Source: a virus (Duplodnaviria > Caudoviricetes). From it: DNA of 26,532 bases. Position numbers and translations under genes: made by a program. Shown in pieces: positions 18,999 through 26,532 of this stretch; position 1 is the first letter of the stretch; every line of letters starts with the position of its first letter. The stretch covers positions 1-26,532 of the IMG/VR virus record IMGVR_UViG_3300017774_005665; one strand, written 5' to 3'. Below the pieces are notes generated by a model. That model saw only the letters and a list, made by a program, of their open reading frames with translations. It was not told the DNA's origin and did no database searches.

Positions 18999-19256
18999 AT
19001 GGGTGGTGGTGGTGGCGGCGGGAATCCTCCTCCTCCCCCTGATCCTTACGCCGAAGAGCGTAGGCAGCAGGCTCTTGCGAGGGAGAGATACGAGAAGGAG
19101 CGGCAAGAGATCTACATTCCAAGGACAAATGCAATGCTCGCCCAAAAGAATGCAGAGGTAGATAACTTCTATAGTATGATTGACCAGTACTACAAGGACA
19201 CAAACCAGTACAGGAACACTCCGGTAACGGTGTATACTAAAAAACCAGCAGCCTGA
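18999..19256 (+). CDS. Small putative internal virion protein (85 aa)
   Basis: MGGGGGGGNPPPPPDPY start, a style common to podovirus ejection/pilot proteins; follows the nozzle. Confidence 0.6.
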   Translation: MGGGGGGGNPPPPPDPYAEERRQQALARERYEKERQEIYIPRTNAMLAQKNAEVDNFYSMIDQYYKDTNQYRNTPVTVYTKKPAA

Positions 19257-19690
19257 TGACTGACAGCGACTACGAGTCTGTCGCTGATTATATCCGAGAA
19301 AAGTACACGCTAGCCATAGGCTGGGGGGATATGAAGCCTTGGCTCAAGTGGTACTACGAGCAAAAGCTGTTGGGCGTTATAAGGCTTGATGGGGTTATAA
19401 CGGGGGTCGGGATGGTTAGATTCGGCGACGATCAGGAGCAGTTAGGTAACGAGGCATACTACACACATCCAAACGGCAAGATTTGCTGGGTCGAGATGAT
19501 CTGCTCGAGCGACCCAAAATCACTGGCAGCCCTCATCGGGCTCCTAATAAGTGTTTGGGGGGTGCGAGAGAGGGTGGCCTTTCACCATGGCCGTAGGCAT
19601 AGCAGGATTTTGAACTTCCCGTTCAAGCTGATGGCTAGGGCATCATTTAAGGGCTTGACCATGCTGCAACCAACTGCTAAGCAGTTATAA
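19256..19690 (+). CDS. Putative GNAT-fold-like virion assembly protein
   Basis: Position between nozzle and ejection genes (T7 gp13/P22 gp14 slot); GVITGVGMVR and ICWVEMICS strands. Fold is inferred. Confidence 0.45.
   Translation: MTDSDYESVADYIREKYTLAIGWGDMKPWLKWYYEQKLLGVIRLDGVITGVGMVRFGDDQEQLGNEAYYTHPNGKICWVEMICSSDPKSLAALIGLLISVWGVRERVAFHHGRRHSRILNFPFKLMARASFKGLTMLQPTAKQL
19655..19686 (+). promoter_or_regulatory. Putative promoter with a perfect palindrome
   Basis: TTGACC 19655-19660, 17-nt spacer, TAAGCA 19678-19683; AACTGCT-A-AGCAGTT at 19672-19686. Confidence 0.5.
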
Positions 19691-19704
19691 AAGGTATATA
19701 ACAT

Positions 19705-20757
19705 ATGGGATCACCATCAATTCCGGCAGCCCCTCCACCGCCCCCCGCGCCTCCGTCGACAACCGGAGCGGACATCTCAATCGCGAACAAGGAGGCAATG
19801 GAGTATTACGCAACTACCGGATATCCCCTAATTTTAGAGGCACTTCGTCAGGGCAAAATGTCCTCCTTGGGGACAGATCTTGATATATATCGTAAAACAT
19901 CTGACGCATCGGTCGAGAATCAGCTAACGCTTGCACGGCGTTATGGTGGCGATGCTGCCAACCTGTCTCGCACGCTGATGCGGAGATCAGACCCGCAAAG
20001 GTTTGAAACTGCCGAAAGATACGGAGATTCCATTAATTCAGATCTTGCGCAAGGCTCTAAGGCCAGCCCGTCCGAGGCGCGCGCTGCCGAGCAGGACATT
20101 CGCTCTGCCCAAGCATCTCGCGGCAATCTTTACGGGAATGCCCCTACGGCCACTGAGGTCTTGGCAAAATTTAATGTTGGCCAACAGCTTCGCCAGCAGC
20201 GTCTGGCTAACGCCCAGAGCTATCTGGGGCTTGCTCCGATTGCCGGTCAAATCCCCTCTGCCACTCCTTCAGGTCAGGCCTTCCAGCCAACGATCCCGCT
20301 GCCAATGGCAAACTCGCCATTCATGGGTGGTCAGCAGATGTTGCAGGGGGCAGGAATCAACGCGCAGAACTACGGCTCGCAGCTTAACTATCTATCCAGC
20401 ACTTATGGTGCTCAAACGGCAGCTAATGCAGCCACATACCAGAATCCCCTTGCTGCCGGAATTGGCGCGGCTCAAGGAATCGTTGGTATCGGCATGGGTA
20501 TTGGCGGACTGCTTTGCTGGTTGGCTCGCGAAGTTTACGGCGAGAGCGACAACAATTGGGTCTATTTCCGCGAGTGGATGCTGAGCTTTGCGCCTGAATG
20601 GCTGTTCAAGCTCTACTGCAAGCACGGAATGTGGCTGGCTAAGTTCGTGTCGGGCAAGCCAATGCTGAAGGGCATTATCCGTAAATTTATGGATACCAAG
20701 GTTGGCGAGATGAAGTTAAGACTAGCCCCTTACGGATTTACGCCCCAACAGGCTTAG
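19705..20757 (+). CDS. DNA ejection/pilot protein with a C-terminal CWxARxVYG domain
   Basis: Pro-rich N-terminus, Q/A-rich helices with ASRGNLYG, a Gly-rich hydrophobic segment, then CWLAREVYG...WVYFREW...APEWLFKLY. Confidence 0.65.
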   Translation: MGSPSIPAAPPPPPAPPSTTGADISIANKEAMEYYATTGYPLILEALRQGKMSSLGTDLDIYRKTSDASVENQLTLARRYGGDAANLSRTLMRRSDPQRFETAERYGDSINSDLAQGSKASPSEARAAEQDIRSAQASRGNLYGNAPTATEVLAKFNVGQQLRQQRLANAQSYLGLAPIAGQIPSATPSGQAFQPTIPLPMANSPFMGGQQMLQGAGINAQNYGSQLNYLSSTYGAQTAANAATYQNPLAAGIGAAQGIVGIGMGIGGLLCWLAREVYGESDNNWVYFREWMLSFAPEWLFKLYCKHGMWLAKFVSGKPMLKGIIRKFMDTKVGEMKLRLAPYGFTPQQA

Positions 20758-20761
20758 TCAC

Positions 20762-21922
20762 ATGGCTGATCAATTCGGCAGCGTAGCCCAAGCTGGGGCA
20801 TACATGATGAACGCTGGGCTGGACGCGATGAGCCAGCGAAGGCAGATGCAGATCAACCAAGAGGAGCAGGAGAGAGACAGGGCATTTAGGGCTGAGCAAG
20901 CCGAAAGGACAAGACAGGCCTCATCCCGCGAAAATGAATTAGATCGGGCGAGCAAGAGAGCCCTCAACACAGACATGTCCGAGGCAGAGAAAATGCTTCT
21001 TGAGCGTAAGCTGCAATCGGCGAGTGCGGAGGCTCAGAAAGACAGGGATTTTAAATCTACGGAGCTCGCAAATGAGCGAGGCCTTGACCAGCAGAAGATT
21101 GATAATGACAGCCTTAGAGCAAACTCCGACAAGCGAAGAGTCGATATTGAGGAGGCAACATTCCAGCGCAATGATCCGGCCAACTTTAGGGCAGACGCTG
21201 ATTACACGATTGGCGCGTTTACTGAGCTAGCCACAAAGATGCGGGTCAATGAGGCCGCAATCAGCAAGGCGATGGCTCAAGGGGAACCCCAAGACAGCGT
21301 GTACATGATTGGCTTGTTGGCTCAAAAGGATGCTCTCGGCGCATATATGTCGAGAAAGGGGGGCTCTCTATTTGGCGCGAAGTACAAGCTCGAGGTGGAT
21401 ACTGCCACCGGCTCAGAAAAAATCGTGTCCGATCAGGTTTCACTGAATGACATCCTTTCCATGCGGACACACTTGGGCAGGGGGGTTGAAGGCTTTCAGG
21501 CTCAGCCAAAGGCCACATCGCAGGATTTGCTCAAGAGCGCATACGACTCCATGCCGAAGTCGCCTCGCTCTTCATATCAAACAGCCCCGCCACCCACGCA
21601 ATCCGTCATGCCTAGAACTGGTGCCGATCCTTTTGGTTTCGGTACAGAGTCTGAGTCATCGCAATCCACGACACCCCGAGGCCAAGTCCCTGATGATGTC
21701 GATGAAGTAATAGACACTCGCGCAGGGAAAAGAGAAACGATTCAAAGCAATTTAGAAAAAACAAGCAGTTCAATAAAAAAGGCGAAAGCCAAGAAAGATC
21801 TGGAGAATTTAAGGTCTTCGGGAAGGTATCAGGTGGGCGGCAGAGATTCAGCGTTGGGTAAGAAAGCCGCAGCCGAAAAACAAAGACGGATGGCGGAGCT
21901 CGAGGCCATTCTTTCCGAGTAA
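20762..21922 (+). CDS. Putative ejection protein (386 aa)
   Basis: Q/E/R-rich coiled-coil N-terminus; position between the pilot protein and the giant virion protein. Confidence 0.6.
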   Translation: MADQFGSVAQAGAYMMNAGLDAMSQRRQMQINQEEQERDRAFRAEQAERTRQASSRENELDRASKRALNTDMSEAEKMLLERKLQSASAEAQKDRDFKSTELANERGLDQQKIDNDSLRANSDKRRVDIEEATFQRNDPANFRADADYTIGAFTELATKMRVNEAAISKAMAQGEPQDSVYMIGLLAQKDALGAYMSRKGGSLFGAKYKLEVDTATGSEKIVSDQVSLNDILSMRTHLGRGVEGFQAQPKATSQDLLKSAYDSMPKSPRSSYQTAPPPTQSVMPRTGADPFGFGTESESSQSTTPRGQVPDDVDEVIDTRAGKRETIQSNLEKTSSSIKKAKAKKDLENLRSSGRYQVGGRDSALGKKAAAEKQRRMAELEAILSE

Positions 21923-21940: not shown

Positions 21941-24900
21941 ATGGCTCTGGCCACTTGGGATGAAATTAAAGCCCAGATTGGGTACGAAGATTTATCAACT
22001 GAAGACAGGCTGATTGCCTCGGATAAGTATGCCGACTATTTCCGGAAGTACTATACAGAGGTAGAGCCACAAGACGCTCAGGCCGTAGACGAGGCGGCAA
22101 GTTCCTTTATTTATAAAAACTCGGATGACGAGCTAGGCTCTTTAAATCCAGTCCGGAGGGGTGCCCAGTTCTTTGCCGGCATCGGCAGGGGGCTGTTTGA
22201 TTCCGCCAGCAGCAGCATCAAGGGCGTTGCTTTAGCCCAGCAAATGATTGGCGAGAAGACGGGAGCTTATGCCGACAATGATCCCGTCACGGAAAGGGAT
22301 GCCTACCAGATTGGCCGAGATCTCGACGAATTCGCCAAGTCAGCGTTTGGCTTGGAAGATCCAAGGCTTCGCAACGATTTTCTAAACACGCTGTTCCCCG
22401 AGGCAATCGGAACTGCCCTCGGATTTGCAACCGCTGGAGGCATCGCGGCAGGCACACTTGCTGTGGCCGCGCCTGCGGCGGCAGCCGCCCCAATTGGCCT
22501 TGGCCTAACCGGCGCAACAGCAGCAGCGAGTCTTGCCACCGGAGCACTCGGAACATTGCAGCAGGGGCAGCAAGGGTACGAGGAGGCCAAGCAGTACGGA
22601 GCCGACGAGGGAACCGCCAGATTGTCCGCCCTTATTAACGCGCCCCTTGGCGCGACTGAGGCTATCCCATTTGCCTCTCAGGGCGTAAAGCTGGCAGGCA
22701 AATTTGCGGGGGGTCTTTCTGGAGGTGCCCTGCGATCTGTGTTTAAGACCTTTGGTAAGGACGGAATTTTACAAGGGGTAGCTAAGACGGCAGCGGAAGA
22801 GTCATTGCAAGAAGGCTTTCAGCAGCTTGGCGGAAACATCATTGCCCAAAATCTTTACGACCCCAACCGAGGCACGCTTGAGGGTGTCGGGACGGCAATG
22901 GCATTGGGTGGTCTTGTTGGAGGAACCATAGGCGGGGGAGTCAACGCGATTGTCAGAGACAACGAGTCCTTCTACGCAGATGAGCTTGGCAAGGATATTG
23001 AAGAAAAGACTGCGCTGGCAAGTGCGGCCGTCGATGAAAGGCGGGAGCAGATTTTATATGCAGCCAGAAATGCATACCGGACAAGCGAGAGTAAGGTCGA
23101 CCTAGAAACCGGCGAGGAGACTTCTACAGAGAAATCAAAGACAGTGTTTGGCGACAGGCTTGGCGGTGATGTGCCGGACATCGGAGAAAACCCAGCCCTG
23201 AATAGCGTGCCGATAGGCAGGGATATCAGACAGGACAAGGACGGCACGAATATCGAGACGATCACTTACCACACTCCGATGGGGCTGCTTTGGGAGGCGG
23301 AGTTTAAGAGCGGCCAGCCGATTGCGGTTCGCGATGTTACCGATACAAGTCCAACCCTACAGCCACTTAGGGAGCCCCAAGACCCAGCTACTGCTAGGGC
23401 TCTAGGCCGTGGCCTAAAAGAGGAGTTCGGACTTGAGACTGAGGGCGAGATGGATCGGCGACTGATCGATGAGGCCACAAGGCGGATGCAATCAGGAAGA
23501 GAGGGGATCGGCAAGGAGGCGACACCAATCAATCAGCTTGAGACACCGAGAGTGCCCGAGCGCGACGATGCCGGCGTTGCAAGACAAGAGCAGTTGGCTC
23601 GGGAAATCGACCGCCTGTACAGGCTGCGCGACTCCTCGCTGGCTAAGCAAATTTTAACAGGGCAAAGCCCCGATGCGGGATCTGTGGGAGATGGCAATCC
23701 AAACACGGCCGTCGAGGTGATCAAATACGACAACAACGGCAGAGTTGTGCAGCCAAAAGCCAAGCCCACTCAATTAGTCTCTCGTCTAAACACCATGATA
23801 GCAGCTAGGGAAAGGGAGTTGCGAGGCCTGAAGGCCAGACCCGAATCCTACATATATGCATCGGTCAGGAATCAGCCCCCAAGCTATTCGCAAAGGGCTG
23901 CTCTAGTGCAGGGTTATGAGAGGCTCTGGAACAGCATCACATCCCCTCAATTAAGAAAGCAGATTGATATGGAGGTGGGCAACATTGATGAGGCCGCAGC
24001 CTCTATGAATCTGCCCTTGGGCGCAGTCGCCTACTACCGGAAGGCCATTCAGGGGCGCAAGGAAATGATCTTCCTGTCTGACAAGTTGGCCACAAATCAA
24101 ACAGTCACCAGAGAGATGCTGCATGAGCTTGGGCATTCCTTTTGGCACACGCTGCCTGCCGGCATCCAGTCTAAGGTTATCCAGCTTTGGAAGGCCGAAA
24201 CCGGATCGAGGACTGGGGTCTTGTTTGAGGAGGGCGGCGCGCTCAAGCCAGAGGTAAGCCCGTATGTTATGACAAGCCCCCAAGAGTTTTTCTCTGAAAG
24301 GTTGTCGTGGACTAACGACAACTGGGCGAAGGGCAGGACTGAGGCAAGTGGCATCATGCAGAAAACCGGCAACGGTTTCCGGAGCATGCTGGACAGATTC
24401 CTAAGATACACCGGCCACGGAGAACGACTAAATCTTGAGTTTAAAACATTCCTAAATCAGGGAGACAGGTTTGCCGCATCGAGAGATAGATCTGTTGCCT
24501 CGTTTGCGGCCGAGGGGGCTCAGTCTGGATTTGACACAGGGCTCAAGCGGGAAGTCTCTGCCTCGGTCAGAGGGATGCTGGATTTCGGCAAGATCTATGA
24601 CTTCGTAAAATCTAACGAGGGCGGGTTTACCGTAGACCCAGTGCAATTTAGAATGCCGCAAAGCGGATTTGTTGTAGCCCCGTCCAAGAAAACAGAGGAT
24701 AGCCTTGTATACGAGATCGAGGCCGGACTCGGCAGGGAAGGCATGATCAAGGCTCTTCGCTCCTATCTTCTGTCTCAAGAGGATCTAATCAAGGGGTTTG
24801 GTTTTGGGAAAGAGCTTGTGGGGGTGGATGGCCGTGGAGCCTTCTTTGGTGGGTGGAGAAAGACCGAGGCCAATGGGGTGGCCATCCCGCAAGACCAGCA

Positions 24901-26532
24901 GCCGCTTGTCATAGACATGTCCTTTATTCTCGACAAAAAAGAGGACGCTTTGTACCTTGCTGAAAATGGAGAGCAGGAAGCAATTTTCGACATCTCCGCT
25001 GGGGTCGCAATCGACACAGCAGAAGGCATCAGCCAACTACGAGCCGGTGGCGTTTACTCGCCCAACGACAGGGGAAGACTACAAGAGTTGGGTGGACAAA
25101 TTGATTACATCGCTGGACGAAAAGGGAGTTTTCGGGCAGCGGCAGACCGCATTGGACGAACCATCCGACCAGCTAACAACCAAGCAGCAGAAGACAATCG
25201 GGCGCAAAGCGTACCGCAAGAGGGGTCGCCAGAAGTAGCAGCTTCCGCGAGGGGTTCCAGATCCCTCAATCTTAGCCCCAAAGAGCGTGGGGATCTTGGC
25301 TTCTGGGTAAGTCAGCGAATTCCTAATGCCGTAAAGAAATCTGAGGACGGCCTTAACTCTGATCTCGTTATCGGCTTGGATGCCATCCTGTCAGACAAGA
25401 ATCTAGCCGCCAAACAGGCGGACTATTTTAGAAGATACATAGGCTGGAAGACGGAGGCCAAGACAGACGAGGATGTAATTAAAGACTTCTCGAATCACAT
25501 TAAGGCCAACCTCCTGTACCTATATGATTCTTACGACCCTAATCTAAGGGAGCGGGCTAAGCAGTGGTATCAGGGTGGCAGAAAGATTGCCGATGAGTGG
25601 GCTTCTAAGTATGGCTATACGACTCCGCAAGTAGCGGCCGTTATCGCGTCCCTATCTCCAAGAGCCAACTGGTTTGTTAATCTGACAATGGCCGAGCGTC
25701 TGATTGACATACACACCAAGGCGAAGGACAAGCCGTTTACCGAAGCGATGATGAAGGAGGCCAGAAAAATCTTAAAGCCATTCCAGTATCGGACTGTAAA
25801 AAACTCTCTCGGCAAGACCTACGCGCAGCTAACCAGCAACTTTGAAAAAGCTATCTTCATCAGGGTTTATGACCAAACCAACAATGACAGATCCTACTAC
25901 GCCTACTCTCCGGAAGGCAGCAGGCTAGGAAAGTTTAAGACCAAAGCCGGAGAGGACGCAAAGACAGCTTGGACTTCGTTTGGATTTATCGCCAAGGGGG
26001 TGAGCGTACTCGAGAATGGGAGCAGAGAGAACATCAGCAAGATTCTTGGTGGCGAGCACAAGGTAAGAAATTTCTACAACAACATCCTTCTCCCCAACCT
26101 ATCTGACTTCGGGGATGTAACAATCGACACGCACGCAGTAGCAGCAGGCTTATTGCGCCCCCTTTCCGGCAATGACTTCGAGGTTGGGCAGGCTCTTGGG
26201 GTTGGTGCTCCATCCTCAAGCCTGACTGGGGTGTCTGGTATGTATGGAGTTTATGCGGATGCCTACAGGAATGCGGCTGCCGAGCGAGGGGTCTTGCCCC
26301 GAGAGATGCAGAGCATTACTTGGGAGGCGGTCAGGGGTCTGTTCAAGCCCGCATTTAAAAATGCGAAAAATAAGGCTTTAATAAACAATACATGGAAGGA
26401 GTATTCAAAGGGTGAAGCAACCGCAGACAACACAAGGCGGCGAATCTCCAGCATCGCTGGAGGAATTGAAAGGCCTAGCTGGGCAGTTTCCGACTCTGGA
26501 GTATATGATCCTCAACAAAATTCCGCTAACAC
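21941..26532 (+). CDS. Giant polyvalent/internal virion protein, 3'-truncated (>1530 aa), not in the ORF track
   Basis: ATG 21941 (MALATWDEIK...). No stop in the segments I translated, and the track lists no closed ORF in this frame. Contains an A/G-rich membrane-like N-terminus (AEESLQEGFQQ...GGLVGG), HELGH at 24122-24136 with downstream EFFSE, a GFT...GGW...D.S...QEAIFD domain, and an SP...W..N / KVRNFYNNI / VTIDTHA / MQSITW domain. Confidence 0.9.
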   Translation, partial: MALATWDEIKAQIGYEDLSTEDRLIASDKYADYFRKYYTEVEPQDAQAVDEAASSFIYKNSDDELGSLNPVRRGAQFFAGIGRGLFDSASSSIKGVALAQQMIGEKTGAYADNDPVTERDAYQIGRDLDEFAKSAFGLEDPRLRNDFLNTLFPEAIGTALGFATAGGIAAGTLAVAAPAAAAAPIGLGLTGATAAASLATGALGTLQQGQQGYEEAKQYGADEGTARLSALINAPLGATEAIPFASQGVKLAGKFAGGLSGGALRSVFKTFGKDGILQGVAKTAAEESLQEGFQQLGGNIIAQNLYDPNRGTLEGVGTAMALGGLVGGTIGGGVNAIVRDNESFYADELGKDIEEKTALASAAVDERREQILYAARNAYRTSESKVDLETGEETSTEKSKTVFGDRLGGDVPDIGENPALNSVPIGRDIRQDKDGTNIETITYHTPMGLLWEAEFKSGQPIAVRDVTDTSPTLQPLREPQDPATARALGRGLKEEFGLETEGEMDRRLIDEATRRMQSGREGIGKEATPINQLETPRVPERDDAGVARQEQLAREIDRLYRLRDSSLAKQILTGQSPDAGSVGDGNPNTAVEVIKYDNNGRVVQPKAKPTQLVSRLNTMIAARERELRGLKARPESYIYASVRNQPPSYSQRAALVQGYERLWNSITSPQLRKQIDMEVGNIDEAAASMNLPLGAVAYYRKAIQGRKEMIFLSDKLATNQTVTREMLHELGHSFWHTLPAGIQSKVIQLWKAETGSRTGVLFEEGGALKPEVSPYVMTSPQEFFSERLSWTNDNWAKGRTEASGIMQKTGNGFRSMLDRFLRYTGHGERLNLEFKTFLNQGDRFAASRDRSVASFAAEGAQSGFDTGLKREVSASVRGMLDFGKIYDFVKSNEGGFTVDPVQFRMPQSGFVVAPSKKTEDSLVYEIEAGLGREGMIKALRSYLLSQEDLIKGFGFGKELVGVDGRGAFFGGWRKTEANGVAIPQDQQPLVIDMSFILDKKEDALYLAENGEQEAIFDISAGVAIDTAEGISQLRAGGVYSPNDRGRLQELGGQIDYIAGRKGSFRAAADRIGRTIRPANNQAAEDNRAQSVPQEGSPEVAASARGSRSLNLSPKERGDLGFWVSQRIPNAVKKSEDGLNSDLVIGLDAILSDKNLAAKQADYFRRYIGWKTEAKTDEDVIKDFSNHIKANLLYLYDSYDPNLRERAKQWYQGGRKIADEWASKYGYTTPQVAAVIASLSPRANWFVNLTMAERLIDIHTKAKDKPFTEAMMKEARKILKPFQYRTVKNSLGKTYAQLTSNFEKAIFIRVYDQTNNDRSYYAYSPEGSRLGKFKTKAGEDAKTAWTSFGFIAKGVSVLENGSRENISKILGGEHKVRNFYNNILLPNLSDFGDVTIDTHAVAAGLLRPLSGNDFEVGQALGVGAPSSSLTGVSGMYGVYADAYRNAAAERGVLPREMQSITWEAVRGLFKPAFKNAKNKALINNTWKEYSKGEATADNTRRRISSIAGGIERPSWAVSDSGVYDPQQNSAN
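24966..25238 (+). CDS. Candidate nested +1-frame gene A (90 aa) inside the giant gene
   Basis: Open frame across the inter-domain linker with a protein-like core FTRPTTGEDYKSWVDKLITSLDEKGVF. No good SD; the start is uncertain. Confidence 0.4.
   Translation: MESRKQFSTSPLGSQSTQQKASANYEPVAFTRPTTGEDYKSWVDKLITSLDEKGVFGQRQTALDEPSDQLTTKQQKTIGRKAYRKRGRQK
26412..26532 (+). CDS. Candidate nested +1-frame gene B, 3'-truncated
   Basis: TAA TAA at 26379-26384, AAGGAG at 26396-26401, GTG at 26412, then MKQPQTTQGGESPASLEELKGLAGQFPTLEYMILNKIPLT to the window end. Confidence 0.5.
   Translation, partial: MKQPQTTQGGESPASLEELKGLAGQFPTLEYMILNKIPLT

Follow-up and report, generated by a model that had tools for sequence, protein, structure and literature searches.

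Small genes overprinted in the +1 frame of a giant virion-protein gene form real, separately encoded families, and each family is tied to the domain encoded directly upstream. On balance, we favor the view that the two members found here, ORF A and ORF B, encode domain-specific cognate inhibitors of virion-delivered enzymes. The broader proposal that a polyvalent virion protein is a string of effector-immunity cassettes, with the inhibitor of each toxic module overprinted in the next linker and with at least six unnamed inhibitor families (A, B1, B2, C1, C2, and C3) encoded in this way, appears plausible to us at slightly under an even chance.

The window analyzed is the whole of a 26.5-kb contig, the plus strand of which carries terminase-like, head-tail adaptor, major head, and tail genes. 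The giant ORF belongs to the virion module, being preceded on its own strand by the major head, head-tail adaptor, and tail genes. Its N-terminus matches phrog_2206 (virion RNA polymerase family; E = 1e-7), and a Pfam search detected no MuF domain in the protein. A peptidase motif, a domain denoted here domain 1, and DUF7178 are encoded in this ORF, so that several disparate domains are joined in one polypeptide. In L001, a contig 99% identical to the window, the main frame of the giant gene runs for more than 1,300 codons beyond the window end. The domain next after domain 1 varies, being different in the relatives L060 and P0006. Three small or medium-sized genes occupy the region upstream of the giant ORF (18999-21922); they yielded no Pfam or PHROG match where tested, and they may encode additional ejected proteins. 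Near-identical sequence is present in freshwater and lake metagenomes from 16 studies, and the segment 23900-26532 is free of indels in contigs from four freshwater runs (four studies). RNA libraries account for 6 of the 20 runs holding the region, their contigs revealing neither strand, level, nor translation. The features pertinent to the analysis are as follows.

21941..26532, plus strand: gene for a giant virion protein of the polyvalent type, still open where the contig stops, with 1530 aa encoded up to that point
23957..24454, plus strand: candidate zincin-like metallopeptidase domain with HELGH at 24122, not followed by a nested gene
24551..24574 and 25232-25255, plus strand: recurrent boundary motif S-x-R-G after E-V-x-A
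24575..25020, plus strand: domain 1, ferredoxin-like alpha/beta, weakly SAM-lyase-like according to a structure model and residue pattern
24957 (TTG) or 24966 (ATG)..25238, plus strand: ORF A, 90-93 aa, +1 frame of the giant ORF
25283..26485, plus strand: domain 2, DUF7178, predicted HhH-GPD DNA-glycosylase fold, EHKVRNFY at 26054 and TIDTH at 26120
26394..26401, plus strand: Shine-Dalgarno-like GGAAGGAG preceding ORF B, duplex energy -8.3 kcal/mol
26412..26532, plus strand: 5′ part of ORF B, +1 frame, GTG start, cut by the contig end

The initial annotation had placed two +1-frame ORFs inside the giant ORF, the second of them running from 26412 to the end, had described the main-frame linker over the first as rich in R, G, A, and Q, and had seen no comparable ORF after the peptidase. 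All three readings were borne out. The linker over ORF A contains 45% R/G/A/Q as compared to 33% in the whole ORF, and behind the peptidase, the +1 frame is interrupted by stops at 24402, 24429, and 24453. In the peptidase linker, four-fold degenerate sites are identical at the background rate (14/31 and 7/16). The start of ORF A is ambiguous between the TTG at 24957, which is preceded by a modest Shine-Dalgarno sequence, and the ATG at 24966, which is not. The length of the open frame is weak proof by itself, since stretches of such length are not unusual in this gene: the +2 frame is open for 118 codons and that of ORF A for 107. The case rests on conservation.

This conservation is pronounced. 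A protein search with ORF A retrieved a single relative, 66% identical, which has the same place, frame, ATG, and stop in six viral contigs. When the giant gene was compared with two relatives (~54% protein identity), 27 of 29 and 25 of 27 four-fold sites within the ORF A overlap were identical, against 32/134, 7/44, and 12/31 in three stretches elsewhere in the gene (16-39%; 51/209 in sum; Fisher p = 5e-13), with a peak of 25/25 at 25050-25200 when the identity was plotted in 150-base bins. Between the two relatives themselves, synonymous changes affect 1 of 81 codons within ORF A versus 459 of 1998 elsewhere. Identity at main-frame position 3 reaches 0.75 in the overlap, versus 0.33-0.40 elsewhere, and main-frame position 1, the wobble position of the +1 frame, is at background (0.64); raised position 3 together with unchanged position 1 is the pattern predicted by dual coding. 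Thus, ORF A is a real gene under selection on the second frame.

Domain 1, behind which ORF A opens, is predicted to adopt a ferredoxin-like structure (pLDDT 84). SAM lyases occupied ranks 1, 3, and 5 of the Foldseek matches (E = 0.11-0.36) and were tied at the top of the VIA search (Z 3.5, rmsd 5.1, 101 aligned residues). Across 17 sequences, G91, D113, and Q133 are invariant and W93 nearly so. The SAM lyase Svi3-3 has conserved Gly56, Glu69, and Gln104, along with Tyr58 (PMC7877911), and the order of G, D, and Q in domain 1 parallels that of Gly56, Glu69, and Gln104, with Asp in place of Glu. Profile searches linked no SAM lyase to domain 1, and there were zero tblastn matches to it in cultured phages. 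The model and the residue pattern together suggest that domain 1 is probably SAM-lyase-like, the resemblance being weak.

Distant relatives of domain 1, sharing 25-34% identity, permitted a wider examination of the A family, for which the test set comprised 13 polyprotein loci and two free-standing proteins, after removal of two truncated loci and duplicate phages. All 13 polyprotein loci have an open +1 frame that encodes a short hydrophobic segment and, after it, a predicted helix. When each locus was scored with a profile from which its clade was left out, the +1 frame outscored both the main and the +2 frames in 13/13, and in 12 of the 13, no more than 6 of 200 shuffles per locus scored as well (2/200 for the window); L091 fails this comparison, with 24/200. 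Behind the two free-standing domain-1 proteins, an A-type ORF is absent (99/200 and 53/200 shuffles, respectively). Shine-Dalgarno signals in the A family are weak and mostly missing. In 6 of the 13 loci, the same position is occupied by an ATG, under Asp, Asn, or His codons of the main frame. ORF A itself is basic, with 17 K/R and 10 D/E residues, and neither ORF A nor ORF B has a PHROG match at E ≤ 0.01.

Domain 2 corresponds to Pfam DUF7178 (E = 8e-30). Its structure, predicted with high confidence (pLDDT 95), best matched the 8-oxoguanine glycosylase Ogg of T. maritima in the VIA search (Z 9.2, rmsd 3.9, 187 aligned), and VIA rows 1-22 are all HhH-GPD-superfamily glycosylases or a related queuine-salvage enzyme; DNA-modifying relatives of the fold also exist (VIA row 49). 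Foldseek returned nothing for domain 2 at E ≤ 0.001. As judged from the model, domain 2 has the HhH-GPD DNA-glycosylase fold. K261 and D283 are invariant in 48 of 48 sequences, and on the basis of their motifs, rather than of residue-level superposition, these are putative counterparts of the HhH Lys and the catalytic Asp. The domain contains 58 K/R and 45 D/E residues.

ORF B, which opens at the end of domain 2, is complete in L001, where it encodes 75 aa, ends at the window-equivalent position 26639, and is nested in the longer main frame. Profiles were built for two families, B1 from five seeds and B2 from three, and applied to 58 viral domain-2 loci. B1 was found in 17 of these (seeds counted; weakest E = 0.26) and B2 in nine, 26/58 altogether, always in the +1 frame. 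When profiles built on viral loci only were run against 27 held-out loci from genome assemblies, 18 had B1, one had B2 (19/27 for B in total), and four had members of the C families described below; the remainder consisted of two C-like ORFs recognized by eye, one truncated locus, and L124, which lacks a partner. The strongest test of the tie between ORF B and DUF7178 is the reciprocal one, in which DNA was scanned with the B1 core motif alone: DUF7178 lies directly upstream in 44 of the 46 matches, the two exceptions being a match truncated by the end of its contig and another that falls by chance in a large ORF of no relation. The 45 B1 motif loci, which group into 16 sequence clusters, comprise 33 in which the main frame stays open around the nested gene and 12 in which the gene stands free or overlaps in part. 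In L143 (1296-1891, minus strand), DUF7178 has acquired an ART-like domain of 144 aa, with Pfam matches below the cut-off, at its end; here the B1 gene, near-identical to its L153 counterpart, begins after the stop of the lengthened protein. As the B partner is kept with its domain under every gene layout, it is a separate protein.

In the tree of DUF7178 domains, B1 is found on some eight deep branches and B2 is confined to one clade (FastTree; deep support is weak). Kinship of B1 with B2 was considered and found unsupported by profile comparison (probability 1.9%, E = 0.026). The B1 cores are acidic, with 20% D/E and 7% K/R. By its sequence relationships, then, ORF B is a real gene and a member of an acidic family. 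For ORF B itself, there was no tblastn match in cultured phages and no usable match in the Atlas; a B1 gene is present in the sequenced phage LS06-2018-MD07 (OP947163.1, 2135-2353, minus strand), where it is missing from the annotation. DUF7178 together with a B1 gene also occurs in two cultured bacteria, Pseudofulvimonas gallinarii (L107) and Jannaschia seohaensis (L108; strain DSM 25227, NZ_UETC01000013.1, 45803-45988, minus strand), which might serve as laboratory systems. A different DUF7178-type domain in two relatives likewise has a +1 ORF behind it, for which the selection test gave 5/44 versus 23%. ORFs in the +1 frame, with no obvious kinship to B1 or B2, were observed behind other DUF7178-type domains at L060:5135-5377 and behind the C-terminal domain of L074.

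Partners are not found behind every domain. In 30 of the 58 viral loci, another domain is joined directly to the end of DUF7178 with no free linker, and owing to this fusion, ORF B is absent. A +1 ORF sits behind the fused domain instead. Such ORFs fall into C1, with 14 loci recognized by profile at E ≤ 1e-6 (four of them seeds) and four more that are weak or were assigned by eye, C2, with eight loci assigned by eye, and C3, with four loci assigned by eye. The other two non-B viral loci are one that is truncated and L034, which has neither a B nor a C partner. In 27 of 27 loci tested, that is, the 30 without three near-duplicates, C-family ORFs have an ATG and a Shine-Dalgarno sequence at one position, the start windows having been set after the positions of the C ORFs were seen; in 24 of the 27, the Shine-Dalgarno sequence ranks among the best 15% for all +1 ATGs of the gene. 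The invariant K and D are present in the fused DUF7178 domains as well. The fused C3-type domain of L118 matches the Pfam SAM lyase family PF23780 below the cut-off (E = 7e-5), and three other fused domains have no Pfam match. Some C1 ORFs (L008, L009, L017, L020, and L054) continue with conserved-looking segments, which may be second nested modules.

Partners are also missing elsewhere. Domain-1-like modules fused ahead of DUF7178 (L135, L174, and L139) have no A partner, and no B- or C-type partner was detected for the DUF7178 of Roseobacter phage CRP-738 gp40 (L083), L124, L034, or the stand-alone Cece gp22. In CRP-738 gp40 and L124, a short hydrophobic G/A/L-rich stretch follows DUF7178, and a methyltransferase-like segment was seen by eye ahead of DUF7178 in CRP-738. 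Behind the terminal DUF7178 of L034 lies a very acidic +2-frame ORF, possibly an unrelated partner. The initial annotation had put a small gene "behind each effector domain," which is too strong in view of the 30 fused loci and the modules and proteins just named. Of the points that it set out for checking, conservation of the +1 ORF behind the homologous domain holds for both families, and the small gene does occur as a separate downstream neighbor in the B family, in the 12 of 45 motif loci where DUF7178 ends the protein, though not with the two free-standing domain-1 proteins and Cece gp22. The cassette interpretation fares likewise: the small genes are under selection and tied to their own domains, but not every domain has a partner.

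An unbiased screen of 4,586 alternative-frame stretches in 63 giant ORFs looked for those in which conservation of the alternative frame exceeds that of the main frame. Among the resulting 23 families, the top five are A, B1 (twice), B2, and C1. Antisense "families" with gains of 11-24 lie opposite conserved domains or +1 genes and were dismissed as shadows. The screen also revealed a +1 stretch common to L022 and L023 (gain 29) and a +2 stretch common to L032 and L055 (gain 25). Given the fold of domain 2 and the likeness of domain 1, the partners appear to trail two kinds of domains, one glycosylase-fold and the other probably SAM-lyase-like.

The candidate peptidase domain carries the HELGH motif, and its matches to Pfam ATLF/Peptidase_M78 are weak, below the cut-off. 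Copies of the S-x-R-G motif, mostly after E-V-x-A, are all located at domain boundaries (two in the window, four in L001, and four in L060), and the motif is possibly where the peptidase of the protein itself would cleave. In L001, another zincin-like domain lies beyond ORF B (5360-6898), and no conserved nested ORF was detected behind it.

We propose that the ORF A and ORF B proteins bind the SAM-lyase-like and DNA-glycosylase-fold domains, respectively, during late synthesis of the polyprotein, when these domains would be active and harmful to phage growth through base excision on DNA that is being replicated and through depletion of SAM. We consider inhibition the most probable role of the partners because a glycosylase and a SAM lyase made late and in quantity would threaten the DNA and metabolism of the phage. 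The acidic B proteins may cover the basic DNA-binding surface of domain 2 in the manner of DNA mimics; acidic B cores and a basic domain 2 suit inhibition of such a surface. Shed at packaging or ejection, the partners would leave the enzymes to work only in the next cell, and the +1 frame of the linker would be the only spot where an internal domain and its immunity gene stay together on one short DNA and one mRNA. Each small gene lies directly downstream of its domain and is specific to it, as in a cassette. A strict rule of one partner per domain does not hold, given the 30 fused DUF7178 domains and a few others, and this dispensability is the weak point of the inhibitor reading. The basic character of ORF A, the general lack of Shine-Dalgarno sequences in the A family, and the weakness of the SAM-lyase assignment of domain 1 also count against it.

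Other protein functions deserve consideration. The partners could be domain-specific assembly chaperones that maintain the final folded domain of a module in a soluble, monomeric, or partly unfolded state for packaging and threading through the tail, inhibition being incidental. That a tightly fused module has a single partner, the type of which depends on its last domain, is consistent with folding or capping; moreover, the SAM lyases of known structure form trimers whose active sites lie at subunit interfaces (PMC7877911), an arrangement that the polyprotein might need to prevent. Yet there is no partner behind the peptidase of the window or along the shared N- and C-terminal parts, the five strongest families of the screen sit behind enzyme-like domains, and the acidic B cores match a DNA-binding surface, which makes chaperones an unlikely answer. 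We regard with still greater doubt the notion that the partners are positive subunits, such as activators or targeting and specificity factors, that travel or act with the domain in the infected cell. Tight family-specific pairing is expected of any binding partner, and loss upon domain fusion could mean that the fused domain substitutes for the subunit. For such a role, however, in-frame fusion would suffice, whereas separateness over about eight deep branches fits a detachable part, and free-standing relatives of both domains do without the partner.

The remaining explanations dispense with a separate small protein. A programmed +1 frameshift near the domain end would generate shorter polyprotein forms with a +1-frame tail, in line with the observations that the nested cases are all in the +1 frame and open within the last codons of the domain and that Shine-Dalgarno sequences at A-family starts are weak. 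This is very improbable, however, considering that free-standing copies lie in the +2 frame (L117 and L129) or past a stop and an added domain (L143), that the ATG and Shine-Dalgarno sequence of the C families are fixed in 27/27 loci even where xAT constitutes only 10-20% of xAT+xAC, and that the A-family ATG recurs at one place in 6/13 loci even though the main-frame residue there is one of three. The open frames might instead be by-products of an RNA or DNA signal or of recent recombination, which could account for the high DNA identity at 25037-25142, the only part to which the contig of one relative aligns. This possibility has been largely refuted and merits almost no credence: main-frame position 1 stays at background (0.64) while position 3 doubles, and the families are conserved as free genes and, despite DNA divergence, as proteins, in a comparison that was aligned on the +1 protein and hence favors the +1 frame. 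RNA structure as the source of the ORF A constraint was rejected, the region folding no better than shuffles (z = -1.08).

If the partners are indeed inhibitors, the families hidden from annotation would include inhibitors of HhH-GPD glycosylases and SAM lyases, and nested genes would flag those domains of polyvalent proteins that are dangerous to the phage itself, offering a sequence-only route to spotting toxic domains. Such inhibition would provide a testable answer to the question of how a phage makes and packages host-damaging enzymes without hurting its own late growth. The pairs, which represent candidate protein inhibitors for two enzyme classes, are small and amenable to testing in E. 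coli, and the nested genes constitute a class of conserved genes missed by annotation, as exemplified by B1 of LS06-2018-MD07.

Nested partner genes have a precedent in the embedded spanins Rz/Rz1 of phage lambda, a small +1 gene inside its partner gene, with embedded, overlapped, and separate forms. The likeness extends to the +1 nesting and to the coexistence of the three forms within one family; however, Rz/Rz1 has a single nested gene and works in lysis as a two-part machine, whereas here unrelated families are nested at several points behind different domains. Ugi is a small phage inhibitor of a DNA glycosylase, and acidic DNA mimicry is known in this class. Ugi and p56 of phi29 block the host uracil-DNA glycosylase, whereas the B proteins would inhibit a HhH-GPD-fold domain of the phage's own. 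p56 is a small phage protein that inhibits this host enzyme (PMC2018632). Domain 1 resembles the SAM lyases Svi3-3 and T3 SAMase (PMC7877911; PF23780) in its ferredoxin-like fold and in the order G, aromatic, acid, S, Q, and differs from them in having Asp for Glu69, an Asp-to-Gln spacing of ~20 versus 35, a location inside a polyprotein, and no significant score.

Polyvalent proteins are predicted to enter the host cell by injection along with the phage DNA (PMC5512222). The protein described here resembles them as a giant multi-domain product of the virion module with a candidate zincin-like metallopeptidase and varying, unrelated enzyme-like domains. The available text of PMC5512222 describes no partner or immunity genes; the main text of that article includes neither "glycosylase" nor "overlap," and its external domain lists could name these domains otherwise. 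Toxin genes, including those for phage MuF toxins, keep small immunity ORFs immediately downstream, and a small putative immunity ORF comes directly after 89% of the genes for MuF toxins (PMC5576092). Like the MuF polymorphic toxins of temperate phages, the giant gene combines a virion-module effector domain with a domain-specific small ORF behind it; in the MuF system as covered there, however, one C-terminal toxin is followed by a separate ORF, whereas here several internal domains have their partners inside the linkers of the polyprotein. In the open-access literature consulted, no account of partner genes nested in those for polyvalent proteins was found, nor any paper that mentions DUF7178 by name. 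Collectively, the ingredients, namely, immunity genes, embedded genes, and polyvalent proteins, are known, and what is new is their combination into several internal cassettes with overprinted partners.
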